Assembly (NCBI RefSeq): GCF_964204645.1
Contig: NC_134033.1
Coordinates: forward strand, 16,128,655 to 16,192,654
Source of the DNA: Tubulanus polymorphus
Taxonomy: Eukaryota > Animalia > Nemertea
Direction: 5' to 3'
Length of the DNA stretch: 64,000 nt
The notes under the pieces were generated by a model, which made no database searches, was not told where the DNA came from, and saw only the letters and a list, made by a program, of their open reading frames with translations. The position numbers and the translations under genes are program-made. Positions 2,295-46,200 of the stretch are shown here, in pieces; within the stretch, counting starts at the first letter, position 1, and every line of letters starts with the position of its first letter.

Positions 2295-3230
2295 TTTATC
2301 CGACGATACCGAGCCTAGTCGACAACAGCTGCAGCTGCAAAAAAAAAACGCTATCAAAACATCGGTTTCCATAGACACACGCTATCTATATTTGACTTGA
2401 TTAAAAAAGCCCCACAATTAAAATGAATCATTATGATCTTAATAGTTCGACGTTTCGAGTCGATCTAGTCGTGTGATCTATGAGCTGTTTTGAATGGCTC
2501 ATAGATTTTATTGCACGCACGCGTGCGTATATGTGTGTATTTTAGTCAAGGCGTCCCACATTTGCATGAGACTACCTTTCCGGACGGCCTAGATCTACTG
2601 AAGGGAGAACTAAAAGATGGATCGAATAAACGATAATATTTTTGAGTTACAATATCCGGGCCATGTTTCAAAATTGAAGAGCGGGTGCCATTTGCACAGT
2701 CGTGACCTTGACGGCCAAAAGGCGTCTATAAACTCATGACTTTGGGGCTGGTTCTTTATAAGGTTGTCATACTTTCACAGGTTTTTCTTTAAATTGTGGA
2801 TTTTCTTTGATAAATATCATTTCTAATGACATTGCTATAAGTGATTATTTCTTTGGTTCAATATCAAAAGCGTACGGTGTCAGGCTCGCCTGCGCACCTC
2901 TTCAAACCTACAGCGATCTATAACGCGATAGCAAATAACAGGCAAACAATATCTAAATCGTGTCTATTTCGGTGGCGCAATCAGAAAGCAATTTGTGGAT
3001 GAAAGAAAGGTAGAAAATTGATACGCGTATCAATAATAAATGGTTACACGAATAGAGTGAATGGGGAATTGTGTGACTGTAGAGTCTATGAGTTCAGAGA
3101 GCACTTTAATAAATAAACTGACTAGTGTTCTTTAAGAAACAGAAAGCATTAGAAATAAGTATATACAATGGATTTGCAGTGAAATTTGCCGATCTTATAA
3201 TCTTATTTTTGTATGAAATGTCGTATACTA

Positions 3231-3630
3231 ACATCAACATCACCATCAACATCAACATCAACATCATCATCAACAACATCATCATTTCATCAACATCAAC
3301 ATCACCATCAACCTCATCTTCAACATCAACATCAACATCAACATCAACAACATCATCATTAACATCATCATCAACATCAATATCACCACCAACATCAACA
3401 TCGTCATCAACATCATCATTAACAACAACATCAAGATCAATCCTCAACATCATCATCAACATCAACATCATCATCAACATCAACCTCATCATCAACATCA
3501 TCATCAACATCATCATCAACATCAACCTCATCATCAACATCATCATTTCATCAACATCACCATCAACCTCATCATTAACATCATCATAAACAACATCATC
3601 ATTTCATCAATCTCAACATCAACAACAACA
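3231..3630. repeat. Compound (CAT/CAA)n low-complexity microsatellite
   Basis: About 400 bp of mixed CAACAT/CATCAT triplets; it explains the spurious ORFs 3106-3546 and 3125-3589. Confidence 0.95.
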
Positions 3631-15077: not shown

Positions 15078-15364
15078 TTACGCGTTTTTCTGTTGCGGTA
15101 CGAGTGCTCCGGCGCGGTTAGCTTCCTCCAGCGTCATCGGGGCGGTCGTGTTCTTACCGGCAGCCGGCGGCGCGGGCGGCGCTGCTCGTTTAGCGCCACC
15201 AACGGTTGGTGTTGGTACAGCAGCGCCACCACCGGTTGGTGTAGGTACAGCTGCACCCCTATCGGTTGGCGTTGGTACATCAGCGCCCTCACCGGTTGCT
15301 GCTGCTGGTACTGGAATAGTATCGGCTGGTTTAGGCTGCGGTTGTAGTGCCGGATTACCAATCC
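15078..15364 (-). CDS. Terminal exon of the Cys micro-exon array: Pro/Ala/Thr/Gly-rich tail
   Basis: Acceptor TTTCAG| at 15365, phase 1. Encodes GIGNPALQPQPKP...(GAAVPTPTGG)x3-like...PQQKNA*. Confidence 0.85.
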
Positions 15365-15569: not shown

Positions 15570-16000
15570 TTTGATGATGTCATAATGGAATTTGTGTAGA
15601 GACAGACATCATTATTCGGAGGTGTTATAGATAACACGGTATTTTGATGATGTCATTAGGGGACTCTTGTGGAGGTAGCCATCTTTATTCGGATGTTCTT
15701 TAATTTGATGACGTCATAAGTAGAATGCCCCGGAGGCAGCCATCTTTATGCAGAGGTTCTTAGATAACTGGGTATTTTGATGATGTCATTAGGGGACTCT
15801 CGTGGAGGTAGCCATCTTTATTGGGAGGTTCTTCAATTTGATGATGTCATAAGGGGACTCTCGTGGAGGTAGCCATCTTTATTGCGAGATTCTTCAATTT
15901 GATGACGTCATAAGGGGACTCTCGTTGAGGTAGCCATCTTAATTGGGATGAGGTTCTTCAATTTGATGACGTCATAAGGGGGACTCACGTGGAGGTAGAC
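15570..16000. repeat. Intronic ~60/73-bp tandem repeat, ~7 copies
   Basis: Unit TTTGATGA(T/C)GTCAT(A/T)AGGGGACTCTCGTGGAGGTAGCCATCTTTATT...; it runs right up to the donor of exon 16013-16060. Confidence 0.9.
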
Positions 16001-25000: not shown

Positions 25001-28000
25001 AATCGTGAAACTGGGTCTTGGCGGAAGGAATTAATGATCAGATACTCACGGATACATTCCCCGTTGACCAGTTGTGATCCAGGCGGACATTCGGTCCTGA
25101 TACAAGTTTCGTTCACTTTCTTGTAGCCAGTTGGGCAGTGTATAACTACAATACAAACAATATACACGAACGATATTACTTTCATTATAAATTCCTGAGT
25201 TGCTCAACTCTACAGGAAACTCTTACTGTGACAAATTTCAATATCTACATAATATAATTCACATGGGTTTCACGGCATTTGTAATATTTCACCAATTTTT
25301 AAATTCTGAACTGTAGATGTTACTGAGACAATTAATGATCTTCAACGTTTTTCTAAATTTTGTTTTCAAGAAGATGAGTCTACACAAGCTACCGTGTGTC
25401 TACTTACGTATACAGATTTTCCCATCTTTGCTCAGCATGTGACTCGGCGGACAGACATAACCTTAAAAGTAAATGAAAATAACGGGGAATGTTTTTTACC
25501 TCAGTAAATCTGTTGACCGTACTTTTAAAAATCATGATCAGGCTAACCACAACAGACCTAGGATATCAACTGATTACAAATTTCATTGCTGTTTACAAAA
25601 TGACCCGGGAGATTAGGAGAAACAACCTTTCAATTTTTTCTAGCCTTATTATAATATTTTCTAAGAAGTGATCAGGGTTGTTCTATATCTGATACTCACG
25701 TGTACATTTACCGTGTTCCATTACATACGACTCGGGACAAATCGCTGAAAAATGCGCATAGAATATTCATACGTTATGAAATGAACAATGTTTCATGTGA
25801 ACAGAATTTCAGAATGATATAATATACACTTACGCGCGCATTTGGCACCCTTGATTGCGTAACCGACAGGACATTTTATGCCTAGAATCAGAATCAGGTG
25901 ATATTAGAAATAAACTATTTTCTATTTATGTCGAGGTTATTGAGTGATCGGTGAAAACCAGGAACCAGTTTCAGCAGTTCTTGGTTAGAATTTGACCCGC
26001 GCGTTGAGATATTATTGGAATAAACGAATTTTAACACCAAAAAAGTCAAAAAGTGGTCGTAAATCTTATCTGAAGATTGATCTTATGTCATTAGATTGGC
26101 TATAAAACTAAAATGAGCTCAGACTGGTCACAAGTTGTTAGATTAGCTATAGGGTCTTAGACCGGCCTTTAGTAGTTAGTTTGGTTATAGAACTAAAATG
26201 AGTTTGTAAAATGGAGTTGTTAGATTGGTTGTAGAACCATTATGAGCTTAGACCGGTCTTAAGTTGTTAGATTGGTTGTTGAACCATTATGAGCTTAGAC
26301 TGGTCTTAAGTTGTTAGATTGGTTGTTGAACCATTATGAGCTTAGACTGGTCTTAAGTTGTTAGATTAGTTGTTGAACCATTATGAGCTTAGACTGGTCT
26401 TAAGTTGTTAGATTAGTTGTTGAACCATTATGAGCTTAGACTGGTCTTAAGTTGTTAGATTAGTTGTTGAACCATTATGAGCTTAGACTGGTCTTAAGTT
26501 GTTAGATTAGTTGTTGAACCATTATGAGCTTAGACTGGTCTTAAGTTGTTAGATTAGTTGTTGAACCATTATGAGCTTAGACTGGTCTTAAGTTGTTAGA
26601 TTAGTTGTTGAACCATTATGAGCTTAGACTGGTCTTAAGTTGTTAGATTAGTTGTTGAACCATTATGAGCTTAGAGACTGGTCTTAAGTTGTTAGATTAG
26701 TTGTTGAACCATTATGAGCTTAGACTGGTCTTAAGTTGTTAGATTGGTTGTTGAACCATTATGAGCTTAGACTGGTCTTAAGTTGTTAGATTAGTTGTTG
26801 AACCATTATGAGCTTAGACTGGTCTTAAGTTGTTAGATTAGTTGTTGAACCATTATGAGCTTAGACTGGTCTTAAGTTGCTAGATTAGTTGTTGAACCAT
26901 TATGAGCTTAGACTGGTCTTAAGTTGTTAGATTAGTTGTTGAACCATTATGAGCTTAGACTGGTCTTAAGTTGTTAGATTGGTTGTTGAACCATTATGAG
27001 CTTAGACTGGTCTTAAGTTGTTAGATTAGTTGTTGAACCATTATGAGCTTAGACTGGTCTTAAGTTGTTAGATTAGTTGTTGAACCATTATGAGCTTAGA
27101 CTGGCTCTAAATTGTTATATCGACTATAGAACTAATATGCCCTAAACTGATCTTGAATCTAAGCCATGAATGTACAACTGGCACTCCTCGTTTTTGAAAC
27201 TTACGGACACATTTTCCCATAACGCTTTGGAATCCTTCCGGACAAATTCCTGCAATCAAAAATTACAATCAACATCTGTTAATCGATGTTAATTAATGTT
27301 AATAAATTCGTAAATGTAGTTCAACTGAGATATAAATGGATGAATGAATGAATGAATGAATGAATGAGTTGATATTGTGAAGAAAATCTTCCCCGAGATT
27401 TCTTACGTACGTGTACATCTTCCTGTAGAGTTCAACTTCTGTCCTTTCGGGCAAGAGATACCTACAAATAGAACGCCAGTAAATAATAGCAATTCCGTTG
27501 TTGGTCAATTTCGATAGATATTGTTCAGATGATTTCTCTTAGTACGTACGGACGCAAGTTTGACCATTTTTCGTGTAACCAGGTGGACAGAAAACAACTG
27601 TGGAGAAACGATGAAAAAAACATAATAATACCCAGCCAGACTTTTTTATCAGTCAATAGTACAAAAATACCACTCAGGGGTCAGTTACTCAAAATTTGGT
27701 TATAGTTAACCAGCGGACAGTTGACTTAGTCACAATTTAAAGTTCATTGTTACTATGGTATTTATCCGCCGGTTTCCTTTAACTAACTTTCGAGCAACTG
27801 ACACCGGAATTGTTTCATGAACTAAATTCATGAGCTACGTTTGAGGATTTAAACATATGTTCTACCATTTTCAAAGCTACATTAGGATTAGATGATAGTA
27901 TCTTAAGTTGTTCATGAGTCAGGTTTGTTTGGAATACACACATTATGCACATCCATTAAAAAAGATGATGTTCTACTCACGTGTGCAGTTGCCCTGTTCG

Positions 28001-31000
28001 TTTAACTTGTAGCCTTTTCGACAAATATATCCTTGATTTAGAAATAGAGAAAAACATAAAATATGATTATCACATATATCTATTTATCATATCGTCACAC
28101 CTTATTACATTGATCTCATGATCATGTTGAACTTACGGATACATTTGCCGTCTTTTTGATGATACATTTTCGGACAGCGAACTGCAATGGAATGGATATG
28201 ATCGGATTATTACGCATAGACGCAAACCGAGTCCTTCCTTATCAAGGAAGGCAAGTAAGTGAAGCATTACAGGAGATGACTATTAAGATTACGTCGAAAG
28301 ATAGATATTACCTCAAGGAAATTTTCGGACCCTTTTTATTCTTAGGTGTAGGATTTTATAAAACCCTACCAACCCATAGTCCAATCCCTCGTTACCAAGA
28401 TATTTCAGAAACTATGGTAATCGTAAACTATCAAAACTATCTCGGACATGCTCTTACTTACCCACACAACTCTGTCCCATTAGGAAATATCCCTTGGGGC
28501 ATTTTGTAACTGAAAAAGAACAGAAATAAATTCGAATCTGAAATTGTAAAGGGTCTTAAGTTTCAGTGGTCAGAGGTTATTTAGGATATACTAACGGATG
28601 CATTTTTTGCCGATTTTCTTGTAGCCTTCCGGACAAACGACTAAAACATACGACAAAAATCAACCATTTATCATAATTATTTCAATCTAATCAGAATTCA
28701 TTTCTATGCATTGATTTTCAACCTAACGCGCTAACCTGTACATTTTCCTTTGATAAGAACCATTCCCTTCTTGCACGAGTATCCTAGGAAATAGATAATA
28801 GAAATATTCTAGTACATTGTACAAGCAACAAAAAAGGACTTTTAACCCTATCCAGCTAAAATAGGAGTCCTTTATGATCGAGGAGCTCTGGTCTGACATT
28901 TCCCGAGCCGATTGGGGTAAAAGATCTGTGGCTACTTACGCACGCATTTGTTATCGGAAATCCTATATCCCTTCGGACACGAGTGAACTGGATAATTAAA
29001 AGATAACAAAATCATTAATTTGATTTTGACATCGAAAAAAACTACATAGATAAAGTTAGTAGAGTTTGTTTAAAAACTTACGAACACATCTGTAATCTTT
29101 GGTTAGGATGTAGCCTTGTGGACAAGTGTAGTCTACAAAATAATTTCGTTAGATTTTGTTTATAAAGGAGAAGTGATGGAGGAACCGTGTTAACCTGGTG
29201 TCGAATCGGTAAAACGTAAAGACAGGATTGGTTATTTAGTTTGATTTAAGATACGAGCTTTTAGCTACTAATATAGCTTCATCAGGCAAATGAGCTATTG
29301 AGCTTCTAAAATACAAATTAATACCGAAGATTCTATCTTAGATTTTATAAAACGAATTGATTCTATTTTTTCAAAGTTGATGTTAGAACCTGAAAGTTAA
29401 CTTACGAACACAGAACGCGTTCTTCGGCATGTAACCTACGGGGCATTTGGCTGAAAAATTCAAATCATATGCGCATAGATTATGTAGATACGCATATCGT
29501 CAAGAACAAGTGATAACTGTATAAGTGAAAGGTTTAAGTTTAATATGTCGAATGTGAACAATACTGTGACGTCATTTGCCGAGTCTCGGAATGTTTCGTC
29601 TCTGAAGTTTTATTTTTTCAATCTAATGAGATCAGATGAATACTTTGTGATAGTTTCGACTCACCGACGCATTTGGTTCCCATTAAATGATGACCTTTAG
29701 CGCAGATGACTCTGATGCACTGTTTACCGAACTGTTTGAACCCAACCGGACATTGAGTAACTAGAAAAACAAAAATATGTATCACGACAATATGTTATGT
29801 TATGAATTTTATCGCATTAAATTAGAGATTAATTGTAAGTAATCTAATGCAGACACATTTTAAAGTGTCCTATTCAGTGCCAGTCATTGCTTTAAGGCAC
29901 TTGCAACATTTAGAAGTATATTTACAGCCAAACCCGCTTAATCCGGATCGGCTTAATCAGATTTTAGTTCATTCTGGACATTTATTTGCGGTCCGTTTGT
30001 TCATTAAAATACGAGAAAATGACTTTCTATCCGGATTTTCCGTAAACCGGACGAATTTCGTTCGTCCCAAACGATCCGAATTAAGCGGATTCTACTGTTT
30101 TCAAAAATCCTATATTTGTTAGAAACAGTACCGGTATAAAACATAACTAAATAAGCCATTATGCCTGGCTAAAATCATAAGTCTTGAACAATTAAAAATG
30201 TGTATCATTTCTAAATCATTTTAAAGTTTATAGGACCACATTCTCCCCCTCACTTACTGATACATTTTCCTTCTTTCGTCATTCCTTGAGGACAGTGATA
30301 ATCTGAAAATTTAGAAATATATCTTTCACCTCTTTTGTTCCGCTTTCAAACACGTGGCACGCAAAATATTTGGGATAAGATATCGATACTTACGGATACA
30401 TTTTCCGGCCAGAAGTTGGAATTTTTCCGGGCAGGCAACGACTGAAAAGTGCATGAAATATTTCATCAGCAGAAAGAATTGAAATGAGATTATTTTATGG
30501 GAATATAAGTGTAGCTCTTGATACTTACGGGTACATTTTCCAGTTGAATCTAATTTGTATCCGGGATGGCAGGTGTATCTGATACAGATACCGTCGCTGA
30601 TTCTGTATCCGGGCGGACAGGTCACTGTGTAATAATAAAACCATCGAACATTTATGAATTCATACTCAGTGAAATATACAGGGTTGAATGAGACTGAATC
30701 GAGTACAACTTCCTTGTGGGGGATTTACTTTAATATGTTTCCACAGTATATCAGAAAAGAAAGATCCTCCCTGTTGACTTTGAACAGTAAACCTTGCATA
30801 AGTCGGATCGGCGAAAGTCGGATTAATCGTTTGTATCGGATGAATATTGATTTTCCCCATTTTCCCGTCTATTTTTCAATTCATAATCCAAAGTCGAGTA
30901 CTTTTATTGGCCACAAAATAAAAAACTATAAAAACCGAAATTTTGAGTGATATATTCTTCCCATTGCAGTTTGATTCCTCTTCCAGGCCTGTCCCGGGTT

Positions 31001-34000
31001 TGAAATCGACGATACCTATCAGCGGTCGTTATTTCAGTTGTGGTTATTGTATTAGAATAAGAAATGAACCCAAAATATTTCAGCGTTTTTGAATCATTTC
31101 TTGTTCCGACGTTACGCAACGTTTAAATGTGCTACAATTTTCGATACTTACTGACACATTTCTCGTTCAGCACAACGTAACCTTTCGGACATTTTACACC
31201 TAAAAAACAGATATAATCCATTAATTCAATGGGTAAAGCGATAAATGTTGAAAACGTCGCTAGATTTTTTAAAAGCTTTCGAAATCTTTGAGACACGATT
31301 GCTGTGACTGTTTCGGGCAAACTTTCACTTACGCACGCATCTTCCAGCACGTTTTGTGTAACCTTTCGGGCAGACAGCTGAAAATGGAACAAATTTTCCG
31401 ATGAGTCTGATAACATCCAATGTCTATTTCAAGTAAAGCGAGACGGATAGTACTTTAACAAAATTCTCTATTTGAAGTACAAGCTTTAGCCTCATCGGGT
31501 AATTAATGAGGTGAATTATTTCAACCCTATTTGTATGTCGGGTGCCATCGTCAATTTTGCGGAACCTTCGAAACGATATAAAATCTTTTAGAAATGGAAT
31601 GCTTTAGTCCAGCTTCCAATCAGCGCTGGTAAAATTGTAAGACCTATATACGGATATGTACTACTGATATTCACTGAGTTATGGCACCTAACACTCGTTC
31701 AAACAAGTTGAAATAGTTCATGGACACGAATCCAATTTCAAATCGATAATCGATCACTTACAAACACATTTTCCATCTTTCGTTACAACTTCTCCTTTCG
31801 AACAGCTATGCACTGCAAATTAAATAACAAATAGTTTGAAATAGATTTGTTTCTCGTTACAAACAATCAGCTCGAAACCGAAGAAAAACTTGTTCAACTC
31901 ACGGACGCATTTGTCTCCAACTTTGATGTAACCACGCGGGCAGTCGACCACTAGAAATGATATCATAAATTTGCATAAATTGTTGCGTAAAATAATAAAT
32001 TATCATAAATTGTTACTTAATAGGGGACTCTATACATGATGAGGGGAGAGGAGTTGTGTTAATCTGTTAATTAACCATCAAAGTAATATCTTTCTTTTAT
32101 GTTTACTGTTGTGTCATGTAAAAGTTCAAATGAATTACGCCATATTTTGAAATAGAACTTACGAATGCACTTTTTGCCTTCTAGTTTATAGTTGTGCGGA
32201 CACAGCATTTCTGTAAATACGTACGTGAAAAATAGAACATTGTCATAACATTGAGGATTCTGGATTATAATCATAATTCGTAGTTCATGAAATACGCCAC
32301 GTCAAGCCAAGTTTTACAAAAAAAGGTTAAAATCATAAATCTATGCGGGGTGAACTGAATTGATAATGAAATAAAAGTTGATTGATCGTGTTGAAATTTT
32401 CTTAACACTAGGACCATGTTTAAAGCTGTTTCTAATTTTCTTTTTTAAATCTTCATGAAAAATAAATTAAAGATATAAATCACTCACTGATACAATTCTG
32501 TGCGAATTTCACGTAGCCTTTTGGACAAATAACTGTAAAAATACAAAAATGGCGTAAAAATCAGAAAAAATCATCGATCGCGACATCTATCGTTCATCGA
32601 ACGCAATTTACTAACCGATACAGTGCCCGTCAGCAGCCATTCTAAAACCTTTCGGACACGAGTAACCTAGCGATAGAAATTCAGAAATCATCACTGAATT
32701 ATATACCGAGGTATTCTTATTTTCGAAGTATAGACACCGGTAGAGCTGGAATACTCACGAATACATTTGTTGTCTTTTTTCATATAACCCTCCGGGCAGG
32801 AACAAACTATCGATTGAGATAAGACATCAAAAAATGAAAATAGAATAATGCACCGATGAAAATAGAATATAGTTAATCACTGTAAAATATTTCTTTCAAA
32901 TTTATGTTGGTTCGCTAGATATTCATCATATGTTATAATATTTTGTCTGCAATCTTGCTGGTTTTCTACTTCTTAATTGCAAATAAACTATTATTATTAT
33001 GTATTTTACTTACGGACGCATTTGTTGCCGACCAATTTGTAATGCTCAGGACAAACCATTTCTATTTACATAAAAGTAGAAACGCATTTCAAAGATTCTT
33101 CGTTGATTTCTGAATTTTCGAAAGTTCAGTTTTCGAGTTGTACATGGATTTTGCTTTTGAGTAAATTGGATTTTTATCGGCTGAACTTACGTAAACAGGT
33201 GTTCCCACGTTTGATAAAACCGGGTGGACATTTTACGGCTAAAAACAAAACAAGAATTAAATTATCGAATTAAAAGACACAACATTTCTACAGAGACCAT
33301 TGTCAGGTGTAAAATATATTCAAAGACTCTCTCAAACTCTGTTGGTCGTCTCCAGAGAGAGTCCAAAACTTTAGGAGTTCGTCTTTTGATTTCTTATTTC
33401 AATTCTTGATAAAATATATATCGTTCTTAATCGTTTGAATTTGGTTTTAATGGGTTTTAATCTTAACTCATGAAATTAATATCAGTAATTTTTTCATAGA
33501 TCTTACCTAGACAGGCAGTGATTTTATCCAGCGGGCACTTATCACCTAAAGACAAATATATTACGTTTACATATACTACAGGAAGATTATATAAAATCCC
33601 ACACTAAGAATAAATAAGGAGTCAGAATTCTTCCTTGAATAGCCATATTCAAGAAAAGGATAAAAAAAATCCAAAATAATTCCTTGAGCTTGTATCTATT
33701 CAACGTTTCGACTATATCCTAAAAGTCATCTTAAAGAACCGATAAGGAAAACAAAAATTCCTAAATGTTTCCTTGAGCTTTGAGTTTATTCAGTGTTTCG
33801 ATAACATCCTAATTAATCATCGTTAGGAGAATGGCTCTTTTAGTCTAAGTGAGGAATTCCGGGATTCTATCATTCATCGTTTCATCGATTAGTGTTTCGT
33901 CGATAGCTATAACTGTAAGGTTTATTGATTACCCTTTGCTTTAAAACTAAGACTAAAACACGGTCCCGGTTACTTACGATGACAGCGAGTTTTTATCTGT

Positions 34001-34235
34001 ACAAACCCGGTCGTACAATGCACTTCTGTAAACAGGAAAATGAAACGAGGAAATCACCGTAAATTCGCAAGATTCGAACGATATTATTAAGATAATATGT
34101 ATAAAGATATGATCATTAAGATAACATTTCATTGTTTGTTCGACTTTTTGAATTTTTGAAAATTGTTTGATTACTTACTCATGCATTTTGCTCCTACTCT
34201 GTGAGTTTTATGCGGGCAATGCCAGTTTTGAGTCG
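16013..34235 (-). CDS. Array of 56 phase-1/phase-1 micro-exons encoding 58 CPxG(Y/F)xxxx(x)xxC two-cysteine modules (2811 nt, 937 codons)
   Basis: Exons, each with AG/GT ends and a length that is a multiple of 3: 34179-34235, 33978-34025, 33507-33545, 33191-33238, 33014-33061, 32759-32806, 32616-32666, 32488-32532, 32163-32210, 31903-31950, 31762-31812, 31333-31377, 31152-31199, 30529-30624, 30394-30441, 30258-30302, 29665-29760, 29406-29450, 29082-29132, 28940-28987, 28736-28783, 28596-28640, 28462-28509, 28137-28181, 27981-28031, 27550-27597, 27411-27461, 27205-27249, 25834-25881, 25700-25744, 25408-25461, 25227-25244, 25050-25145, 24892-24939, 24577-24624, 24405-24452, 24209-24259, 24066-24113, 23932-23979, 23754-23801, 20969-21022, 20818-20865, 20398-20445, 20125-20172, 19635-19679, 19494-19541, 19348-19395, 19214-19267, 19088-19135, 18899-18946, 18476-18523, 18134-18181, 17999-18046, 17569-17616, 17215-17262, 16013-16060. 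Examples: VKCPPGFIKRGNTCL, VCPEGYKKIGKKCI, IYCPPGSQVFHGNCV. Confidence 0.9.
18644..18785. repeat. Two abutting AT-rich palindromes
   Basis: 18644-18689 has perfect 19-bp arms and an 8-nt loop. 18690-18785 has 46-bp arms with one mismatch and a 4-nt loop. Confidence 0.9.
19850..19960. mobile_element. Fully palindromic ~110-bp MITE (Tourist/PIF-like termini)
   Basis: GGGGCCGGTTTTA-GACTGGTATTACCTT...GGCTAACTCAATT / AATTGAGTTAGCC...AAGGTAATACCAGTC-TAAAACCGGCC, with TCA on both flanks. Confidence 0.75.
20270..20311 (+). ncRNA. Minimal type I hammerhead ribozyme (Penelope/retrozyme type)
   Basis: CCAC-CUGAUGA-U-GGCUGUU(AGUC)AACAGCC-GAAA-CG-UU|GUGG: intact core, 7-bp stem II, 4-bp stem I, vestigial palindromic stem III, and AATAAA just downstream. 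Confidence 0.8.
20585..20708. mobile_element. MITE family B (CTTAGACTGGTCTTAAG core)
   Basis: TIRs GGGGCCGGTTGCA / TGCAACTGGCACC; homologous to 43155-43294, 57206-57345 and 25961-27184. Confidence 0.75.
21183..23519 (+). CDS. Nested antisense gene: herpesvirus-tegument-like (peptidase C76/VTD-type) deubiquitinase, 281 aa, 5 exons
   Basis: Exons 21183-21446, 22152-22358, 22721-22841, 22923-23088 and 23432-23519 are all GT-AG (phases 0,0,1,2) and give 846 nt of open frame. Motifs: SLYDQ..RGTQC84TSIAVQAVI..WNSDDLDLILCDGHKLH..GAILT..SVAI..YMVLD224SH226RRDRHG..GHAVLLAFESTDHLIRY..QFQLTPV. Confidence 0.82.
21766..21964 (+). mobile_element. tRNA-derived SINE in intron 1 of the nested gene
   Basis: A box TGGCCGAGTGG, B box GGTTCAAACCC, a non-tRNA body and an A10 tail. 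Confidence 0.75.
23174..23382. mobile_element. MITE family A copy in intron 4 of the nested gene
   Basis: TIRs AAGCCGGGATCACACGG / CCGTGTGATCGCGGCTT; homologous to 726-999. Confidence 0.75.
25961..27184. mobile_element. MITE family B copy expanded by an internal satellite
   Basis: GGAACCAGTT left end, AAAAGTGGTCGTAAATCTTA and TCTAAGCCATGA...CAACTGGCAC right end match family B and enclose the 47-bp array. Confidence 0.65.
26234..27116. repeat. 47-bp tandem repeat, ~18.5 near-identical copies
   Basis: Unit GAACCATTATGAGCTTAGACTGGTCTTAAGTTGTTAGATT(A/G)GTTGTT; starts at 26234, 26281, 26328 ... 27082, with one 2-bp insertion near 26673. Confidence 0.97.
29925..30097. mobile_element. Tc1/pogo-type MITE
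   Basis: TA|CAGCCAAACCCGCTTAATCCGGATC...GATCCGAATTAAGCGGATTCTACTG imperfect TIRs. Other elements with similar termini lie near 17870-17909 and 30785-30840. Confidence 0.6.
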
Positions 34236-34849
34236 CTGAAAATATATGTAAACTTGCTTACTTCATTCTCTCGAGCAGCATCCCGTCACGCTCGTTGGTC
34301 ATGAGGGCTCTGCCGCTACACAGCTTGCATCGTCCTCACATTAACATTTCATAGGGTCCCCTTTTACTTCCCCGGACCAACCCCACCACTACAAAAATCC
34401 TAAATCTGTAAGTTTGATAGTACGCGTGAATAAACATCATGAAGATCTACGTAAATAGGTCTCTGTTAACAAATCTGTTTTATGATGGAAGCTATTTTTT
34501 AGTACCATTTTGTACACAAGGCAAGGGCTCGTAGTATCAGAGTGTTGTAGGTAGTGTAAAAACGGAAATATGTTAATCCAGTGTCTACAATTTACCCTTG
34601 TGATTTTGTATGTAGTTTCCCTACGACGTCATGCATTCAGCGATGTAATTGAAATACCGATGTGTTTTTTTAAACAATGAAAGCTATAGCGTGTGTGACA
34701 TCTGCTGTCGTATGAAGCACATAATCAGCGTCACATTAAATACAACTAATATCCCACAGCATGTGTCCAGATAAAAGATCATTAATCGATTCGACGAATG
34801 TGATATTTGCGCGAGTGAAATTTTCCAGCATATGACACTTATACATCGT

Positions 34850-34921
34850 GGGGGTATAGCTCAGCGGTAGAGCATTCGACTGCAGATCGAGAGGTCCCTG
34901 GTTCAAGTCCGGGTGCCCCCT
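34850..34921 (+). tRNA. trnC-GCA: tRNA-Cys(GCA)
   Basis: GGGGGTATAGCTCAGCGGTAGAGCATTCGACTGCAGATCGAGAGGTCCCTGGTTCAAGTCCGGGTGCCCCCT: canonical cloverleaf, GCA anticodon, T5 Pol III terminator downstream. Confidence 0.97.
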
Positions 34922-35523
34922 CAATTCTTTTAATTAGCTTTTTATCCAGTTACTTGTTTCTATCGAAACATACTTCCTGTTTTTTTTCTTGTTTCTTGAC
35001 GTGCTTTTATCATAACGTTGGTATGTGCAACGAGGGTTGGGGGTATAAATAGGGGGTTTCTTACTGGTGGTTAAGGATGGGAGGTGAATGCAAGAGTGAC
35101 GTGTTGTATAAGTATATATATATATATCACGCAGTAGTGAAATAAAGTTAGTTGAGTATATAGAGAAAAATCGTTATACGTTGAATCGATTGAGTGGTCC
35201 AAGAAGCCCGGTAATATTTTCGTGTTAAAATTACAGTATTTTGTATAGATGTATGCTTTGTCATAAAGGATATACAGAAAGATAGTTTGCTTTCCAAATT
35301 TTCAAGTTAGCATACATTTGCATTTATTGAGCACTCGTTAGAGATTATGATATGCAAATTTATGCGTGACGTTTATTCGAAATATTATTGTTTCTACGGC
35401 TCCGATTGTTAATGATATTCATGCAATTTACAACCGATGTCGTAAAAAGATCAATAATACATCGATAAAACGAATGGAAATTTTCATTTTAAAATTTTCA
35501 AACATCTGGCACGGTTTATAGAA

Positions 35524-35595
35524 GGGGGTATAGCTCAGCGGTAGAGCATTCGACTGCAGATCGAGAGGTCCCTGGTTCAAGTCCGGGTGCCCCCT
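35524..35595 (+). tRNA. trnC-GCA: tRNA-Cys(GCA), identical second copy
   Basis: 72 nt identical to 34850-34921, with T-tracts downstream. Confidence 0.97.
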
Positions 35596-36081
35596 TCCGA
35601 AACTTTTCATTTTTTCCCCAGTTTTTGTTTGTTTTAGTTTTTAATGAATTTCGGTTGTTACAGGGTTCAGGGCTCAGTGAGTAAGGTAGAGTTAAAAGTG
35701 GCAGCAGAAATCCGATGCTACTCAACCTTCAGAAAACCAGGGCTCACGTCCTTAAGAGAATGATCTTCAATCATCAGACCGGATTTAGAGTTTTAGGTCT
35801 CAAATTGTAACGGTTTGACTATTGATGTCCTAAATCATACGACTTGTCTAAAGTTGTTTGACTAAGGGACTTATCGAATGGTCAAGAGATGACGTTAAGT
35901 TATCCAAGACCGGTCTGAAATCTAAGCCTTGAATGCAACTAGCACCAGAAGTCGCGTGTTCCCAAAAAAGCAAAATGAAATAAACATAAAACGAAAGGAC
36001 GGATATCGTTTACAAAATTTCTTCTTATATTTTGTAACATCAGACAATTTTTTTTCACTCGATTCAAAAAAAGAAATAAAC

Positions 36082-36087
36082 TTTATT
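36082..36087 (-). promoter_or_regulatory. Polyadenylation signal (proximal 3' end)
   Basis: AATAAA on the minus strand 105 nt after the stop at 36192, followed by a U-rich tract. Confidence 0.65.
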
Positions 36088-36191
36088 GAAATATAACAAT
36101 TTCGGTTTAAAAAGCCGTTTTCACAATTATCATTGAATGTTCGTTAACCGATAATTGAGATTAGATTGTTCCGTCGATCGTTTGAAAGAGT

Positions 36192-37288
36192 CTATGGTCC
36201 GAAGAAAGGAAGCTGATCCGGCCTACGGATCGGCCTGGCGAAGGCGCGGGCTCGTTGGCGGTATCTGCTACGTTTAGCCGCTTCACTTTGTAGAAATCTG
36301 TGCCACAGCGACAACCTGTTAAACTGTCGTCCGGCGGCGAAAGCGGAATTTCGTGGCCGTTGGATAGCGCGAGGATTAGCTGCACGTCCCCCTAACGATC
36401 CACCAGCAGCCTGGTTAGCTGGTATGTGAGGAGGCGGTTGCGGCTTGACGGGTGGTTCTGCTCCGGCCTGTGAAGTAGCTCCATGAGCTGCAGGTTCACT
36501 AGGCACCTGGGGTTTCATTCCTCCTGGACTTCCAGGAGCCTGCTGAGCATCAGGTTCACTAGGCACCTGGGGTTTCATTCCTCCTGGACTTCCAGGAGCC
36601 TGCTGAGCAGCAGATTCACTAGGCACCTGGGGTTTCATTCCTCCTGGACTTCCAGGAGTCTGCTGAGCAGCAGATTCACTAGAGGGCTGGGGTTCCATTG
36701 CTCCTGAACTGCCGGGGACCGGCTGGCCAGCTTGTTTACTAGGCGCTTGGGGTTTCATTTCACCTGCACCTCCAGGAGCCTGCTGTTGGCCAACTGGTTT
36801 CCCAACTCCAGCACCTCCTCGCATCAATGCGCTCCTCAGACGATAAGCCGCCATGACTGGTGACTCTTGTTTACGTTCCCAGCCACCGGGTGGCATTATC
36901 GGGTGTTCGGTGACCTTTTTTTCCGGATGTAACCACGGTTGCGGCTCGTGCCCGTGACGCATGCGCCATCTCATTCCACCGGGGAACTCCTGCGGTTTAG
37001 GAACCGGAGCGTGTAATCCGACATTCTGGGCGAAGTGTGGAATACCAGAATGGGCTCCTAGGATTTTACCTGGTTTCTTAGGTGGTGGTGGAGGTGGTGG
37101 GGCAGTAACTGGCAGGTGGGTGGTTGTAATTTCTGGTGGATGTGTGGCGGGTGGGCGTGTGAAGAGTGGTTCTGGGGCGGGTGCTGTAGTCGGTGGTTTA
37201 GTCGGCGGTTCTGTTGGTTTCTCCGTAGTGACTTCTGGTTCCTTGTGACAGTTGACTTTTGCTTTACCACACTCGGAGAAAGCCCCGA
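36192..37288 (-). CDS. Proximal terminal exon: PT-rich stalk, 20-aa GSPGGMKPQVPSESAAQQAP repeats, Arg-rich C-terminus
   Basis: ORF 36192-37301 with an acceptor at 37289 and a 60-bp tandem repeat at about 36490-36790. Confidence 0.85.
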
Positions 37289-40200
37289 CTGAAACGACCA
37301 ATTTTAAATCCGATATTTAGCATCAATAAAGTTTATCTTTAATCAACAATTGACGGTTCCACATTCCTTAGTTAGAGTTTATATTAGGAAACAAAGACCA
37401 GAACGACGCAAATCATGACGATATTGAACAATAAACCAATAAACAATTTCATCTTTGGGTTCAGTTTCACGAGAAAAATTGACTTCTAAATCGATCCAGG
37501 ATAAACCGAATCAATGAAGAATTTAAATCGATCTAAAGGTTAAAACTTTTTGTGAGGACTTTTTCTGGGTTTTAATTGACAGTCAATTCTAACCCGGAAC
37601 AGCGGAACCTGGTAAGGTCTATTTTTAGTTTACCTGTATTCAGTAGTATTGACAACCATTTCGCAAATCGGAACAGCCTCAAATTCGGAGCCAGAACAGC
37701 GTGTCTGTTCTTATTCTTCTGATCGAAAATATCTTGACGCGTAGAAGACGACGAGCCGACCGCGAAATAGATGACTCTCAGACCCTCGCGTAGCGCCACC
37801 TCAGCCTGGCGGACGGTGGCCGCTGTCTCTTTATGTTGACCAGCGCCGATGATGACCAGCAGTTTCTTGCAGCTGATGCGACCTCCCGAACGCGTCGCGA
37901 ACGAGTATTTCCTAGCTACGTAGATCCCCTGAGCCGCGTTGGCGAAGCCGCCGCGATACTGTACTCGTTCTATGGCCGACATCACTTTCATTTTACTGCT
38001 CGAATCTTTCAGCCACATGTAAGTGGTGACGCCTTGGTGATAGGTGACTAAACCGACTCGAATTAACGACATTCCGACGTTGATTTGACTGACGACTTTT
38101 TGCACGAACGTCTTCACGATTTCGAGCCTCATGCGACCCATATAACGCGACGTGTCGATCAGAAATACGACGTCTAATTTGACTTTGTTTGCTATAAAAA
38201 AGGAGATAGAAATATCAAATAATCTGTACAATGTAATATAATATTTTCTCAATTCAAAATTCTAATCTTTGCTATTCTAAATGTATAACGACATTATTAC
38301 ATAAGGGCATTATGACTATAGCAATGTTGACTGCGTCCATGTCCTCGGATTGTATGAAAATGCATGTTAATGTTTTCAGCCCAGTACCCCTCAACGCTTA
38401 GTTGTGTGCTCTTCGGAAAGTTGCCCTTCTCATTCATAGTAAACCTTATACCCCCTCATAGAACTCTAGATCTGCCCAAAACTTACGTGGATTGTAGAGT
38501 TTGAAACATTTCTCGCCTATCTTTGTTTCGCTTGGTTTGCAACGTGGCCCTGTAAATATAAAAAAAAACAATATGTATATGTTAACACGTTTGTACGAAT
38601 TTAATGCTGTAAATTTATCATTATTTCAGGACTTGACCATCTGGTACTATTCGGTTACAAACTGAGGAAGCATCAAAACATTTGGGGCGTTATATATTAC
38701 ATTAAATGTTGCCTTATTTCAAAAATAAAATTTATCGAACAGTTTTTTTTTAGATTGTCGTAAGATTATTACCTGTAGGTTTTATGTGCGGTCCATTTCC
38801 CCATGAACACTCGAACGTAGCTGGAAAATCGAAAAATAAAACATGAAGACATTCTATAGACATCCTACATAAACTTCTCGGTAAGGATTGAGATATTTTC
38901 AGGGACAGGGGTCAGGGGTAGTTGTTGCTAATTCTTAAAATCTTTAGGTGTTATACGTGTTTGTGACACTCAGTGAAAAAGAAATTGATTTTATAACGTA
39001 TTCGCAAATGGCTCCATTGTAGTCTGTGAAAAATCCCTCTAAATTCCCGCGTATCACCAAAAGATTTCGCAATGCGCATACAACTACACCACGCACCCCT
39101 TTCGTCGGCCTTGGCCTTTATAAAAACAAGTGACTGATGAATACCGGTAATACTCACCCCGCATAAAACTTAAAATGTTCCGAATTAGCAAAATCCACGA
39201 GAAAAAAGCGTCGCGTTGTATGGGCATTTTATAGTGTCAACATTTGCTATAAATCGTTTAATGTATAAGACTACAATGGAGCTAGCGAACACAAAATATT
39301 GCCACAAAGACTGGTCCCGGGACTAGAGGGGATTGATGACCCAATCAACGAAGGAGACTGGTGCCCGACCCACTGGCGATACCGGTACCTATTTACCGAG
39401 ATTTTCGCGACGATTTTAATTGAATATAGTCATACACAGTTAGAGTTAAGATTATTTCGTTTCATCGAGTTTACTCTGAATCTAATCTAAATTTAGATCT
39501 GTGGAACCGGGTCCAGTTGATTACAACATTTTTCCCATTCCAGATATCCACACATAAAATGCAATTCCTATAATTCAACGTGATCACATAATTTCGCTCA
39601 CCTCGTATAATAGCCGTCTTCAATTTAGGCACGGCGCTTCGGAACTGCATGAAACTGTTCAAGAACGCCACCTGGTGACCGATGCCCCACAACTCCTTGC
39701 GGTTGATATTCTGCCCGATGCCGATGACGAACAACCCGATGCGCAAAGATCTGGCCATGTAAGCCTGATGGATGGCCTCCTCGTTGTTGATCGATTTTCC
39801 GTTCGTGATCATGATGGCGAGTTTCGGGACTCCGGGTCGAGCGCCATTTTTCGGCGAGTAACAATCGACCCTCATTACACGTAGCGCCTTGGCCATGTTT
39901 GTGCTGCCACGTTGGTATTTCAGGTTCCTGGGAAAATGTGGAAATTCGTATGAAGTTTATTAGAGCGTTTGGTTGTGTAAATTTTTATAATAATGTGATT
40001 TATATAGCGCTAAAAATTTTGGAAATGACGAACATAGCTTTTTTAAGTTCGACTGATTTCAGAGTTAGATTAAATCCACGCAACTGTGGAACTTGGTCCA
40101 TATTCAAATTAGATCCACACAACTGTGGAATTGGGTCCAGAGGTAAATTAAAAGTTGAATTAAATGCACACACAATGTGGAATCTGATTCACAGTCAAAT

Positions 40201-43200
40201 GAAACCCACAGACCTGTCGAACTTGACCTAGAGTCTTAAATGAAACCCACATAAGTGTGGATCTGGGTTCAGAATCAAATTAAACCCACAAAATTGGAAC
40301 TAGGTCCAGAGTTGTCATGTTGACTTACCTGATTTGTTGAACGACGGCTTTATTACTGTTTGATTGGCTCAGATGGAACGACACGACGGCATTTTTACCG
40401 AACGTTATAACAGCGATTCTAATGCTACCGGTACCGATTTTAAACTGTTGTACGAAGCGAATGAGGAACAGTTTCATGATGTTGAAGTTTTGTGGTCCGA
40501 CGCTGTCTGACGAGTCTAACATGAACACTATATCCGCCTCTCCGTCAAACTCTACAACACGAGACAATGAAAAGCTCTAGAAACTCTAGAAACAACTAAT
40601 ACGTGGAACTGGATCCATTAATCTAGATGTCTGTGTTGATTTATTTTAAGGATTGTGAGAAGTCTATGGAACACTAAGCTTAGCCGGATCCACAAACCGT
40701 ACTTACGCATAGCTGGGAAGCATCGTCCCCTGACGGACATATAACCAGGAGGACAATGGCGTGGTGGTGATACTTCTGGTGGTGATACCTTTTTCGTGGT
40801 AGCTGCCTCTGATGTTATTGTAACTGAAACTGAACGTTATATACCGGTATGTCGCATTGGAATCTGAGTTTGAGTGGAAATGAACGTTCAGAAACAATGC
40901 GCAAAACATTGCCTTTCACAAGAATAATGTAGATGTACCTGCTTCAGACGCTGGCGTAGCTGTTGCTTTTGGTGCCTCAGTTGTCGGTGGCTCAGTTTTT
41001 GCTGCCTCAGTAGTTGGTGGCTCAGTTTTTGGTGCCTCAGTAGTTGGTGGCTCAGTTTGTGGGGCAGCAGTAGATGGTGCCTCAGTAGTTGGAGATTCAG
41101 CTGGTGCGGCTGTAGTAACTTCTTCGGCTTTTGCGGTGACTGCTGGTGGCGGTGGAGACTAATTGAGAAAAATACATTAATATTTATCAAATTTCAATGG
41201 AAATAGTTCATTTTCTTTAAACTGATTGATATTTACCGCTTCGGCCTCCGGTTTCTTAGATGTTCCTGCTGAAGATGGAAAATGTCTGTTAACAGTAGTT
41301 ACGTACTATATCGAATATCTATGGCTTTGAATTGATGACTTGATTCGAAAAAAAACTTACGTTTACCAGCACTGTGGCATAGGAATGATATCCCCTTCCA
41401 TCCCGGTGGACATGAGAAACCTTTCGAGATAAGATTATTTGACGTAATGACGAAATGATAAAGGTTTGGAAGTCTAAGGTCTTGACTATCGAAATCAATT
41501 TGGTAAGTCCATGCTGTGAGGAACGCTACCACACAGTGGAACTTGGCCCAAGTGTCAGGACAGAATGTTTTATCAGGTGGAATGAGCGTTACTTACTGAA
41601 AATGCGTTGACAGTGTCCTTTTACAAGCACCTGACCCGACGGGCAGACGTGACCTGGAATAGACGGAACACCACGAAATAAATAAGCGGTACTTGCCGAA
41701 CGATTGATAATTTTCAATCGGAGATGAATTCCACAGAAGAGCTTACGATTAACGATACACTTGTTGTTGTGGAGAATGTAACCTTCGGGACATTTCTCTA
41801 CAAATAAAAACCGAGTTATGATCGCTTTGGCTAAAGAAAACTTGGAAGAATATGGAGTGACCCAAATCACAAAGCAATTTACTACATTTCATCGGTATAT
41901 ACAAAATGTCTTATATAATATCCTCCTTAATGAAGGTGTATGTTTATGGGTTGATTGTAAATAAGGTTATTATGAAATGAATCTAAATGAAATGGCAGCA
42001 TTAACGAATTTTCGTCTGGAACTTACGTTTGGCCCTGAAACACAAATGCGACTTGTGGATGAAACCAGGTGGACATTTTCCATCTGTTCAGAAATATAAA
42101 ACATACATAGTTTAGTTAAATATACAGTAACATCGAAACAAAACGTAGTTTAGATCATTGTATTTACTTAGTTCTGGGATGCCGGCCATTACTCCATGTC
42201 GGCCTGTGTCAGTCTCACCCTGAGCCGCTTTTGTCGCCTCCTTGCTGGGCTCGGTAGCATTCGCTGGGGCCTCAGTAGCCTTTGGAGGTGGCGCTGATGT
42301 GGTTCCAAAATCGTCTCGTACAGTTATCGCCTCCTGTTTGGCAGCTGGTAGCTTCTTTTCGGCCTCATTTGGCATCTCCGGTTTCAGATGAGCAATATGG
42401 TGTTCTTTGATGTGTGACATATCCAGCTTTTTCTCGGTGTCTGTAGCAATCAAAAACAACATCTATTCAAGTTTCTAGCTTCACATAAGTTGCTGTTTAA
42501 TGTTATAGGAGACTTAATTGCCAAAGTTGACTGGCCTTTCTGTACTGGTGGTATGTAACCATTGCATTAATGATTGATGTTGCATGAACTATTGGGCACT
42601 TGGGCCTCCACTGCACAGCACAGCACTTGATCACTTGGGCTTGCAATACGCAGCACTAGGTATCTGAATATTGCTACAAACTTATGTATGAAGCAACTAA
42701 GCTCGCACTGCGCTGTACAACACTGTGGTCTAAATACTGCTTAACATCTAACTACATGTATTTGCCCCCTGAGGATAGAAACATACGTGTTTCAACTGGA
42801 GCCGGAGTTGTTTCTTCGTGTTTAGCTTCGTGTTTAGTTTCTTCAGGTGCTGCAGCGGTAGTTGCTGGCGGAGCAGCCGATGGAGCTTCTGGTTTTTTCT
42901 CCTCTTTCGCTTCTTCCTTCTTTCCTTTCTTCAACAGGCCTTCTAAAATACAAATGAAAATTCCACGCGTTATAGATCATGGGATTCCACGTACAAAATG
43001 ACTATGACTGTTTTTGTGTTACCTGGGAAGCAGCGATGGGAGACATGAATATAGTGAGGTGGGCAGCGACCAGCTGAAAATAGAGATACAATAAAATCAC
43101 GTAAGTTTAAGACAGGAAAAAAGGCTGAAGATGAATTTTCTTCGATAAATATCTGGGGCCAGTTGCACAGTCGTGACTTAAGTCCAAAAGTGGTCTTAAA

Positions 43201-46200
43201 TCTTAAGACCGGTCTTAATTTGTTAGAATAGCTATAGAACAAAGTTGGTCTTAGACTGGTCTTAAGTCTAAGCCATGACTATGCGACTGGTCCCTGGTGA
43301 AGATTACCAATTCAAGAAGAAACGCTAAGTTCATTTCCGAAGATATACGTTCAACATGGTTCGAGGCATCTATTTATAACCTCTTGGTAACGCATTTAGG
43401 GAAACTTACCTATTTCTGAAATAACTTTCATCGTGCTTTCGTGGCTGACTAACGCTGCTGGTTTTTCTCCTGTATTCGATTTTCCCACTGAAACGAAAGA
43501 AACACCTTTGATTTTCCTCTTAAAAGACAGAAATCCTCACATAGGATATTCTCTTACTTACATTCTATCGTATAATGACATAATTTAGCCTCTAAGTGAT
43601 AATGTGGTGGACACTTTCCACCTGTAACATAGAATTAAGCGAACATCAGTAAGAATTCTCAAGTCAGCGTAACAGCAATAGAGAAATAATAAACCCCTAC
43701 CGATAGGTGGCAGAGTTTTTGGCGGTCCTTGTTCGCCCAATGTTTTACTCTCAGCTGGTTTTTCTGCTGCAGAAGCTGTGGCATTTTCTTCTTTCTTATG
43801 CGCCTCTGCTGGCAATCAAAAATAGACATTGAACGTGCAAATCATAAAGAATGGTAAGATTTATGACCAAGAGTTTATTATAATCACCTGCTTCAGGTTT
43901 GTGTTCCTCTTCTTTCCCTTTGCCCTCTTCCTTAGGTTTCCCAGCTTCTTTAGGTTTCTCTGCCTCCTTAGGGTTTTCTGCCTCCTTAGGTTTCTCAGCC
44001 TCCTTCGGCTTCTCTGCCTCCTTCTGCTTCTCTGCCTCCTTAGGTTTTTCTGTCTCCTTAGGTTTTTCTGCCTCCTTAGGTTTTTGTGCCTCCTTAGGTT
44101 TTTCTGCCTCCTTAGGTTTCTCAGCCTCCGTAGGCTTCTCTGCCTCCTTAGGTTTCTCAGCCTCCTTCGGCTTCTCTGCCTCCTTAGGTTTCTCTGTCTC
44201 CTTAGGTTTTCCAGCTTCTTTAGGCTTCTCTGCCTCCTTAGGCTTCTCAGCCTCCGTAGGCTTCTCTGCCTCCTTGGGTTTCTCTGCTTCCTTTGGTTTC
44301 TCAGCCTCATGTGCCTTATCGTTAGACGTTCCCAGTGGATTTGGAGAGCCAACTTACGAAAAATCAACATTTAGATTGTGTCAAAAAAATGCAAAGAAAT
44401 TACCATAAAAAGAAAATAAATTGACAAAGGAAATACTTACGGCCTTTCCTTACAGGATCTACAAAGGGATTGAATCGTTATTTACGATGAAAAACATTGT
44501 CATTGGAACGAGTAAATTATTCACTGAGCGTAATTTATATACATGTGACTTACTCATAATACAAGTGCCGCTTTGTTCGTGGTAACCAGCAGGACACTTC
44601 TTACCTACAGAAGGAAAGTGACAAGTAAATATGGATATCTCTCGTAATATCTCCTTCAACATCAATCACAATCTCAGACTACTGGAAACTTACCACTTTT
44701 GATACAAGTGTGACCGTGAGTGTGTAAAGAGAATCCTTTTGGACACGGTTCTGTGAAGAACATATACAATACTTGATTCCAATACATTCAAAGGTTAGGA
44801 TCGGGGTGAAGTTCAACCCAGTCCCATCACTCGGAGGCAAATCGCCCGAGAAGAAAGTGGATCAAATTGAAGGACTAAGGTTCATAGTTTAAGTTCAAAA
44901 ATCGCTGACCTGAGTCAAAGTTACCGAGGGTGAATGCAATTTCAGCCCATAAACTCTAACTAGACTCGTCAGACTTAAAGGCAATGATATTCAAATGTTG
45001 TATTGGGACATGTTGTAGAGGGGTATGGCTTAATGCTTACTTTTCGGCTCACGATAGCACAAGTGAGCATGGAGTAGATAATGCGGTGGGCATTTTTCCT
45101 CTGAAAAATAATACGAATATTCAGACGCAGTTTACAAGGAAAAACCCTGACAGCAAATATGTGCCAGCACTGGATTGCTTACCTTTTCCTGTACCAGCAG
45201 GTTTGACAGTTTCTGGTGGTTCTTCCCCGTTAGCCTTGCTCTCTGCTTCTTTTTGTGCCGGCTTTTCTGCTGCAGGAGCTGCGGCATTCTTTGGCTTCTC
45301 AGCCGTCGCTTGTTCTTCTTTCTTGTGCGAATCTATTCAGAAAAGTATATAAAACGACTTTCGTCGCGTTCATTATATTCAAACCTGTCACAAACAATAT
45401 AGAGAAAATAATATATAGCAGAAACTAAATGAACAACAAATAAAAACCTTCTTGTTTTGAATCCTTTTTCTCAGTTAGTACAACTTTAACAGTAGCTTTA
45501 TCAACTGGCTTTTTAGCAGAAGCACTCTCCTCTGGCTTTTTAGCAGGCGCAGTATCTTCTGGTTTTTTAGCAGATGCACTCTCTTCTGGCTTTTTAGCAG
45601 GGACAGTTTCTTCGGTTTTTACTTCTCCTTTGCCTTCGCTCTTTCCACCTTTTCCTATCGGGTGAATGAATTACAATGAAGCAAATATGACCGAGGTTAT
45701 ATGTGGATCATAATCTGAACCCAGGACCGAGTTAACTATCCTAAGAACACAAGTAAAATTTTAAAGCAAGTTTTAAAGCACTACAATTCTACTCGCCAGC
45801 GTCGATACTCTGTAGACATTTCACTAGGCGATAGTCGAGAATAAGAGAAGTAGAGGGGTTTTTCCGAATATATTTATAGTAAAATTCACCAATTTGAAAG
45901 GTTCACCCAAGTTGACCGATAACGGATATAAAGGAGTACAAATATAGGTACGAATATACAGTTTCATGAAAACGAAAAACCATTTGAATTTTTTTCATCT
46001 CATAGGCAAATTAATAATTTCGATCCCTCGTCTTCATGAAACTCACCTCCAACATCAATGCACTCTGCACCAACTTGAATCTGACCTTTCTTACATTTAC
46101 CTCCTAAAGGTTAATTCAAACAGAAAAGAAAAGAAAAACATCTCAATACGAACCGATGCTATAGCTACACGAATTTCCGTAATTGGAACAATGATGTAAA

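Follow-up and report, generated by a model that had tools for sequence, protein, structure and literature searches.

Introduction

In the heavy chain of immunoglobulin M (IgM) and in intron 3 of CstF-77, a weak 5' splice site in a coding last exon is paired with a polyadenylation (poly(A)) signal in a large intron. This competition tilts towards the intronic poly(A) site when the donor is weak and the intron large, while downstream exons give an alternative C-terminus, as set out in extracts of PMC3708835, PMC2874999 and PMC10227441. A second arrangement is that of calcitonin/CGRP, with a skipped terminal exon (PMC2874999 and PMC3708835, in the same extracts). Here we analyse a window of 64,000 nucleotides (nt) from the ribbon worm Tubulanus polymorphus (contig NC_134033.1, positions 16,128,655 to 16,192,654), whose minus strand carries a giant modular gene followed, beyond a 1.8-kb gap, by an array of micro-exons encoding two-cysteine modules (Table 1; coordinates are window positions). 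A first-pass annotation of this DNA had proposed one gene with two C-termini, chosen by poly(A)/splice competition as in secreted versus membrane IgM. That the upstream gene and the array form one transcription unit with alternative 3' ends is, on balance, the probable reading, on grounds other than those first offered for it.

The likeness to IgM holds for the RNA logic and fails for the secreted-versus-membrane switch, since no membrane anchor is present in either tail of the worm gene (19-residue hydropathy peaks at 0.92 for the array and 0.52 for the short tail). The distal part moreover comprises 56 exons and 1,025 amino acids (aa) as opposed to a short anchor, read-through from the donor at 37070 extends for 292 codons, up to three donors are candidates, and the signals are here read from sequence. 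The 11-codon tail that follows the donor at 36227 is more IgM-like, recalling a short tailpiece. The native CH3 end of IgG is SPGK. The 37070 donor lies in Pro-Gly-Lys codons, and the donor at the CH3 end of IgG gives, in the extract of PMC6816433, the junction peptide SLSLSPG-QPK. As in calcitonin/CGRP (PMC2874999 and PMC3708835, in extract), the exon between 37288 and 36060 could be skipped altogether, by joining 37634 to 34235, and its acceptor (score 6.2, with 20 of 106 at or below) is weaker than the strong acceptor of the array (70 of 106 at or below); unlike calcitonin/CGRP, the donors within this exon, 37070 and 36227, favour a composite exon.

Results

The layout on which the first-pass annotation relied was confirmed in its essentials: the upstream stop and the AATAAA behind it, the phase-1 acceptor of the first array exon, the donor CAG/GTAAAA at 37070/37069 after PPPPKKP, and the phase-1 donor of the last VWA exon (VWA4) at 37634/37633. 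Its argument from reading frame fared less well: both joins that it named are indeed stop-free (as is a third, from 36227), but this carries no weight where 50 of the 51 introns of the modelled upstream gene are in phase 1. The one-gene reading is favoured instead because no leader exon obeying the donor rule of this locus was found in the gap ahead of the array, because the 37070 donor falls on a composition boundary, and because the array is under constraint.

The first 72 codons of the terminal exon form a stalk whose composition resembles that of an internal stalk exon at 41158 (cosine 0.88). The best single change point in amino-acid composition along the whole exon is residue 72, which is exactly the 37070 donor, and this residue is also included in the best four-point solution. 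As other long exons have the motif AG/GTAA at 4 of their 322 Gly codons, the chance of its coinciding with the change point is 0.012-0.049. The existence and phase of the site prove nothing by themselves, as such a motif is expected 0.5 times per exon of this size (4 in 8,831 nt) and Gly GGT codons bias it to phase 1; all 12 donor-like motifs inside a 4.2-kb coding exon are in phase 1 for that reason. The 37070 donor scores 2.9 (5 of 106 true donors at or below), close to the real 37634 donor, which is itself weak with a leave-one-out score of 3.0 (6 of 106). The 292 codons that stay open beyond 37070 can be set beside a maximum of 70 after 105 true donors.

A second internal donor, absent from the first-pass annotation, was found at 36227, where the score of 5.8 (18 of 106 true donors at or below) exceeds that of 37070. 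Both internal donors are in phase 1, satisfy the G-1/G+5 rule and lie upstream of the AATAAA at 36087. The introns leading into 34235 would measure 2,834 nt from 37070, 1,991 nt from 36227 and 3,398 nt from 37634, the longest other gap being 2,731 nt. Splice sites within the last exon ahead of a poly(A) signal, weak donors and a large intron together present the layout of a composite terminal exon, in which use of the donors is putative. Searches with the terminal exon against 1.84 billion representative proteins gave two matches, both of low complexity and rejected, and the ESM Atlas gave no usable match for it.

With 40 copies of AATAAA on the minus strand between 14000 and 64000, this hexamer alone was dropped as proof of a 3' end. 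The proximal end nonetheless looks real, judging from the open read-through, a step in guanine-plus-cytosine (GC) content near the stop and the placement of AATAAA. GC content stays coding-like up to the stop, at 0.52 over +7 to +35 of the 36227 donor, a value that 8 of 106 true introns reach; its change point lies at 36171-36196, which beats 36227 by about 3-4 log units; and AATAAA within 200 nt after the read-through stop is seen in only 4 of 41 true introns.

The array proper consists of micro-exons of 39-96 nt (48 nt in 32 of 55) with two cysteines each, spaced C-x10-C and then x3-4, apart from three exons that hold two modules each. Together with the last exon it encodes 1,025 aa (the first-pass annotation had about 1,030) with 117 cysteines (11%) and no internal stop. 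The same module recurs upstream, as had been noted, with 74 copies there and 58 in the array. The first three array modules are more divergent, with mean scores of 24, 24 and 17 where most score 25-39. As all 55 array exons are symmetric and in phase 1, any subset of them could be skipped in frame.

Variation was assessed over 27200-34800 in three public DNA runs, whose contigs continue through introns. None of 15 listed contig joints (of 21) links two exons, and the runs behave as DNA. Of 106 substitutions 40 are listed, and of 29 indels 12; not one of those listed hits an array exon. Thirty-seven of the 40 listed substitutions fall in seven listed contig pieces that are 24.5% exon; counted as 22 clustered events this gives P ~0.002, an approximate value that rests on selected listed variants, the seventh piece ending at the final listed position. 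The public contigs also pass array exons and introns, 34021-34249 included, with no difference there, and the cover of run X1, thin over 33804-34311 and deeper over 34312-34800, was given no weight. From this pattern of variation and the open frame of 1,025 aa we conclude that the array is functional coding sequence under constraint. Its last exon matched none of 1,512 candidate proteins of 166-2,000 aa in a collection that includes the T. polymorphus proteins of NCBI.

In the gap between 34236 and 36080, where the first-pass annotation found no ATG or signal-peptide exon, the array appears to have no good start of its own. The earlier statement was too strong, as one ATG frame resembling a signal peptide does exist (34440-34368); its donor breaks the rule of the locus, lacking both G at -1 and G at +5, a double lack found in none of 106 true donors. 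An exhaustive search for leaders whose donors pass the rule, with at most three exons each, yielded 150 chains; the 15 most hydrophobic reach 2.99, and none of them is signal-peptide-like. A donor-like GAA/GTAAGC on the minus strand at 34262 stands 26 nt ahead of the array acceptor, too close when the shortest array intron is 78 nt.

The short form would comprise at least 4,261 aa, and the long forms at least 4,922 aa by the 37634 skip, 4,995 aa from 37070 and 5,276 aa from 36227. AlphaFold models a contiguous 228-aa run of upstream modules as a chain of paired short strands (mean predicted local distance difference test score (pLDDT) 80, predicted template modelling score (pTM) 0.41), and an array double module (pLDDT 86) with a clear hairpin in its first module and a bridge only in its second. 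The C-x10-C module is thus predicted to be a two-stranded hairpin, probably closed by one disulfide given the two cysteines of each exon, and the long tail a flexible, basic string of beads with a net charge of +96. The short form would end in a disordered, cationic tail.

The module was compared with known cysteine-rich proteins. A single double module exceeds the cut-off for cEGF (PF12662; 29.4 bits versus 26.6), EB (PF01683) matches two of three upstream runs (best E 1.7e-4), and fold searches return EGF arrays, furin-like repeats/VSP and the TNFR CRD as fragments (Foldseek TM at most 0.18; best VIA Z 3.3, with a root-mean-square deviation of 3.2 over 36 residues of HER2). The last disulfide of EGF is C5-C6, and the module resembles only this loop; against the EGF fold as a whole, the match is confined to the cEGF fragment, the modelled units are hairpins and the fold matches are weak. 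A profile of the module against sequences in the PDB reached a best E of only about 0.6, and no VIA match at Z 5 was obtained among 48,161 chains, which does not show a new fold. For the cysteine run the ESM Atlas placed an unnamed cluster first at 0.90, its recognition being low (1,375), and listed VSP/furin-like leads scoring under 0.9. A metagenome scan gave two loci with 34% identity over 45 residues. In being secreted and structural, with regular cysteine spacing and assumed disulfide cross-links, the coccidian oocyst wall proteins COWP/TgOWP offer a likeness by description (PMC4514997, in extract); unlike their six-cysteine repeats of type I/II, the unit here has two cysteines per micro-exon and is found in combination with VWA and FN2 domains. 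Sea star footprint proteins are likewise large, modular and cysteine-rich, and differ in using vWF C/D, C8 and TIL domains (extract of PMC9382459).

Discussion

One transcription unit with alternative 3' ends would work as follows. Cleavage after the AATAAA at 36087 would yield a protein with the Gly/Pro/Gln- and Arg-rich tail. In some cells RNA polymerase II would read past this signal, and a weak phase-1 donor would pair with the strong acceptor at 34235, removing the proximal site and adding the array of 1,025 residues. The likeliest donors are 37070 and 36227, which lie inside the last exon and would make it a composite terminal exon, the 37634 skip being less favoured; our judgement, neither computed nor exclusive, gives somewhat under half of the weight to 37070, about a third to 36227 and about a fifth to 37634, and more than one donor may serve. 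The junction from upstream gene to array and the use of both poly(A) sites are presumed.

Several observations weigh against this reading, and they are taken here together with the rivals that they favour. The change-point test was designed after the 37070 site had been seen, residue 72 is absent from the best two- and three-point solutions, and rival single change points score nearly equal (17.4 versus 17.2). The donor and acceptor scoring matrices derive from our own exon model. The 36227 donor, for its part, accounts for the array without any alternative end: 37288-36227 would be a constitutive internal exon of 1,062 nt spliced to 34235 in a protein of at least 5,276 aa, with the TAG and AATAAA intronic and used rarely or never. 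Among the rivals it stands slightly ahead, and we consider it unlikely. It gains from the quality of the donor, which besides its score has G at +5 and is a single base away from the true 19494 donor (TCC/GTAGGT; chance 0.059 per 60 coding nt), from other long internal exons in the gene (1.8 and 4.3 kb), and from the fact that it explains the missing leader exon at no extra assumption. Eleven or more codons of read-through follow 42 of 105 true donors, and a Markov score for coding versus intron sequence is highest at 36217, a point between donor and stop. The coding-like GC content up to the stop with its change point, and the placement of AATAAA, speak for a real proximal end and so against a single one, and the 37070 donor on its composition boundary would be left unexplained.

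Second in order come two tandem genes, which we also hold to be unlikely. In this case the first gene would end at 36192, and the array would encode a secreted protein of its own, about 1,050 aa long and driven by a promoter in the gap, perhaps with a non-coding exon ending at 35065 and the signal-peptide exon of 34440-34368. Several features have the look of such a boundary: the upstream gene has a complete-looking end; the ATG frame reaches 3.44 in hydropathy over 8 residues and closes in phase 1, 132 nt ahead of the array; the strong donor CCA/GTAAGA at 35065 (6.8), preceded by a TA run, could close a first exon that is non-coding; and a pair of tRNA genes lies between. The array also has traits of its own that a separate paralogue would have, in that donors with G+5/T+6 number 50 of 55 there as against 15 of 30 upstream, and the mean module score is 29 within the array and 25 versus upstream modules, indicating a distinct expansion. 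The leader donor, on the other hand, has no parallel among the true donors, and control DNA totalling 45,260 nt yields signal-peptide-like frames of this kind at 0.16 per 1,825 nt, that is, by chance in about 15% of equal-length stretches. The TA run was rejected as a TATA box, being a microsatellite that recurs at 58680; the stretch 35065-35130 (minus strand) combines it with an initiator-like heptamer, by what we take to be the initiator consensus, and with no ATG frame, and may be a non-coding exon or chance. That no protein of 166-2,000 aa carrying the array's last exon is on record tells against a separate gene only faintly, because the neighbouring annotation looks imperfect, with a G-protein-coupled receptor (GPCR) model that begins in a simple repeat.

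The two genes between are copies of tRNA-Cys(GCA), antisense to the gene and, like the 36227 donor and the 34368-34440 candidate, absent from the first-pass annotation. They are identical over 72 of 72 nt within a duplicated 186-nt unit (78% identity), and were counted as one event. They are the only tRNA genes of the 64-kb window (Rfam over 12000-64000 gave these two tRNAs only), and both lie ahead of an array with 11% cysteine. The pair could mark an intergenic boundary; in C. elegans, however, introns contain 44% of the tRNA genes, and these are influenced by host promoters (PMC4999229, in extract), so that the pair neither marks a gene boundary nor proves a link to its host. We regard its identity and placement as a curiosity.

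That the array might be what is left, orphaned or decaying, of an old tail, or else an assembly artefact, is scarcely credible: for all the divergence of its first three modules, its 55 exons retain AG/GT ends, lengths divisible by three and open frames, variants avoid the exons and public DNA contigs span the array, and exon constraint largely refutes it.

Within the one-gene reading, a more elaborate version would make this a tunable fibre gene, in which competition between the donors 37634, 37070 and 36227 and one poly(A) site gates a tail of 58 beads, micro-exon skipping sets its length and the tRNA-Cys genes are coupled to the choice. Read-through into the cysteine-rich tail would then license the tRNAs, or RNA polymerase III occupancy would bias cleavage versus splicing. 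We consider this version very improbable.

From its domain content the protein is presumably an extracellular scaffold or adhesive. It is probably secreted, its 5' end lying outside the window, and may serve in extracellular material such as mucus or a secreted tube. Species of Tubulanus inhabit secreted tubes. A cross-linkable fibre would come with the long form, and an end that is disordered and cationic with the short one. The mechanism of the composite terminal exon is known, and no published account of the protein or of a swap of this size was found; the case is likely but not demonstrated. If it is true, RNA processing by itself lets a single ribbon worm gene alternate between two materials of very different kinds, a cationic end without ordered structure versus a kilo-residue cross-linkable chain of beads with one module per micro-exon, and textbook RNA logic changes material properties, not membrane attachment. 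The protein becomes a candidate component of nemertean mucus or tube, and the locus offers a test of a tie between an intronic tRNA pair and its host's demand for an amino acid.

The layout of VWA, FN2 and two-cysteine micro-exons had no match in the searches made, and no paper with the full architecture was found. The gene is unnamed in the titles and abstract openings of the Tubulanus and nemertean-mucus literature (for Tubulanus, sets of 7 and 17 entries; for mucus, the best 15 of 71 entries), a scope that lies outside the mucus proteome tables of PMC12846013 and PMC11768458, which could hold orthologous peptides. The Balbiani-ring literature held nothing relevant, and the extracts of PMC12846013, PMC7897414 and PMC6410017 had no bearing on the locus.

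Further Features of the Window

Table 1. Positions of the principal features in the 64,000-nt window (a slash marks the exon/intron junction of a donor)
Feature	Position	Strand	Description
Giant gene, shared 5' body	37634..63648	-	51 modelled exons with AG/GT ends; 5' end beyond the window
Last VWA exon (VWA4)	37634..38191	-	PF00092, E 2.1e-26; phase-1 donor CAG/GTAAAC, the putative skip route to the array
Terminal exon	37288 to TAG 36194-36192	-	364 codons
Pro/Thr/Glu stalk	37070..37288	-	72 codons; possible 219-nt internal exon ending at donor CAG/GTAAAA
Read-through tail	36192..37069	-	292 codons: Gly/Pro/His, five 60-nt Gly/Pro/Gln repeats, Arg-rich end
Second internal donor	36221..36229 (last exon base 36227)	-	TCC/GTAGGC; phase 1, 11 codons before TAG
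Proximal AATAAA	36082..36087	-	105 nt past the stop, T-rich run after it; putative signal
tRNA-Cys(GCA), copy 2	35524..35595	+	Antisense to the gene
tRNA-Cys(GCA), copy 1	34850..34921	+	Antisense to the gene
Rival signal-peptide-like ATG frame	34368..34440	-	24 codons, donor GAA/GTAAAA; probably chance
Cysteine array	16013..34235	-	55 symmetric phase-1 micro-exons, 58 two-Cys modules, 931 aa
Array exon 1	34179..34235	-	Behind a phase-1 acceptor
Distal last coding exon	15078..15364	-	94 aa, Pro/Ala/Gly/Thr-rich; TAA 15080-15078
Distal AATAAA	14912..14917	-	T-rich stretch downstream; putative signal

The shared body of the giant gene is open for 3,896 aa in our own exon model (63648 to 37634), a minimum in that six exons with uncertain ends were omitted and the start lies outside the window. 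It combines VWA and FN2 domains and the two-cysteine modules with Lys/Ser-rich and Pro/Thr/Glu-rich linkers. Pfam places VWA at 37635-38189 and 40330-40549 and fn2 at 62058-62219; four more FN2-like exons and two more VWA stretches were assigned by eye only. The best solved relatives of the last VWA domain are collagen VI alpha 3 and the mussel proximal thread matrix protein 1 (PTMP1), at E 1e-16, and its exon matched none of 1,299 candidate proteins of up to 2,000 aa in the protein collection. Two internal exons on the minus strand are very long, 47750-52045 (4.3 kb) and 52712-54547 (1.8 kb), and carry intron-free runs of cysteine modules amid Lys/Ser/Gly-rich repeats; the module thus exists with and without introns. 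Pfam gave no match for either tail or for these two exons, and no collagen repeat came to notice in the exon translations. The cysteine modules at 41360-45100 (minus strand) are His-rich as opposed to Lys-rich elsewhere, a possible metal-binding segment.

The last array intron contains a degenerate tandem repeat at 15600-16000 (minus strand) with AATAAA at 15883, 15822 and 15689, possibly cryptic poly(A) signals. The largest, 21023-23753 (2.7 kb), holds several unannotated frames of 74-133 codons and may harbour the remnant of a mobile element. An intronic tandem array with a unit of ~47 nt occupies about 26200-27100, with similar sequence, by eye, near 20600, 43200 and 57300. On the plus strand at 59654-59911, within an intron of the upstream gene, an 86-codon frame resembles by eye what we take to be the end of a long interspersed nuclear element (LINE) reverse transcriptase.

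At the far end of the window lies an intronless GPCR gene (1239-2381, minus strand), identical at 1239-2333 over 365 residues to the T. polymorphus NCBI adenosine receptor A2b-like protein. The NCBI model apparently takes its first 79 residues from a simple repeat at about 3109-3603, perhaps by misprediction.

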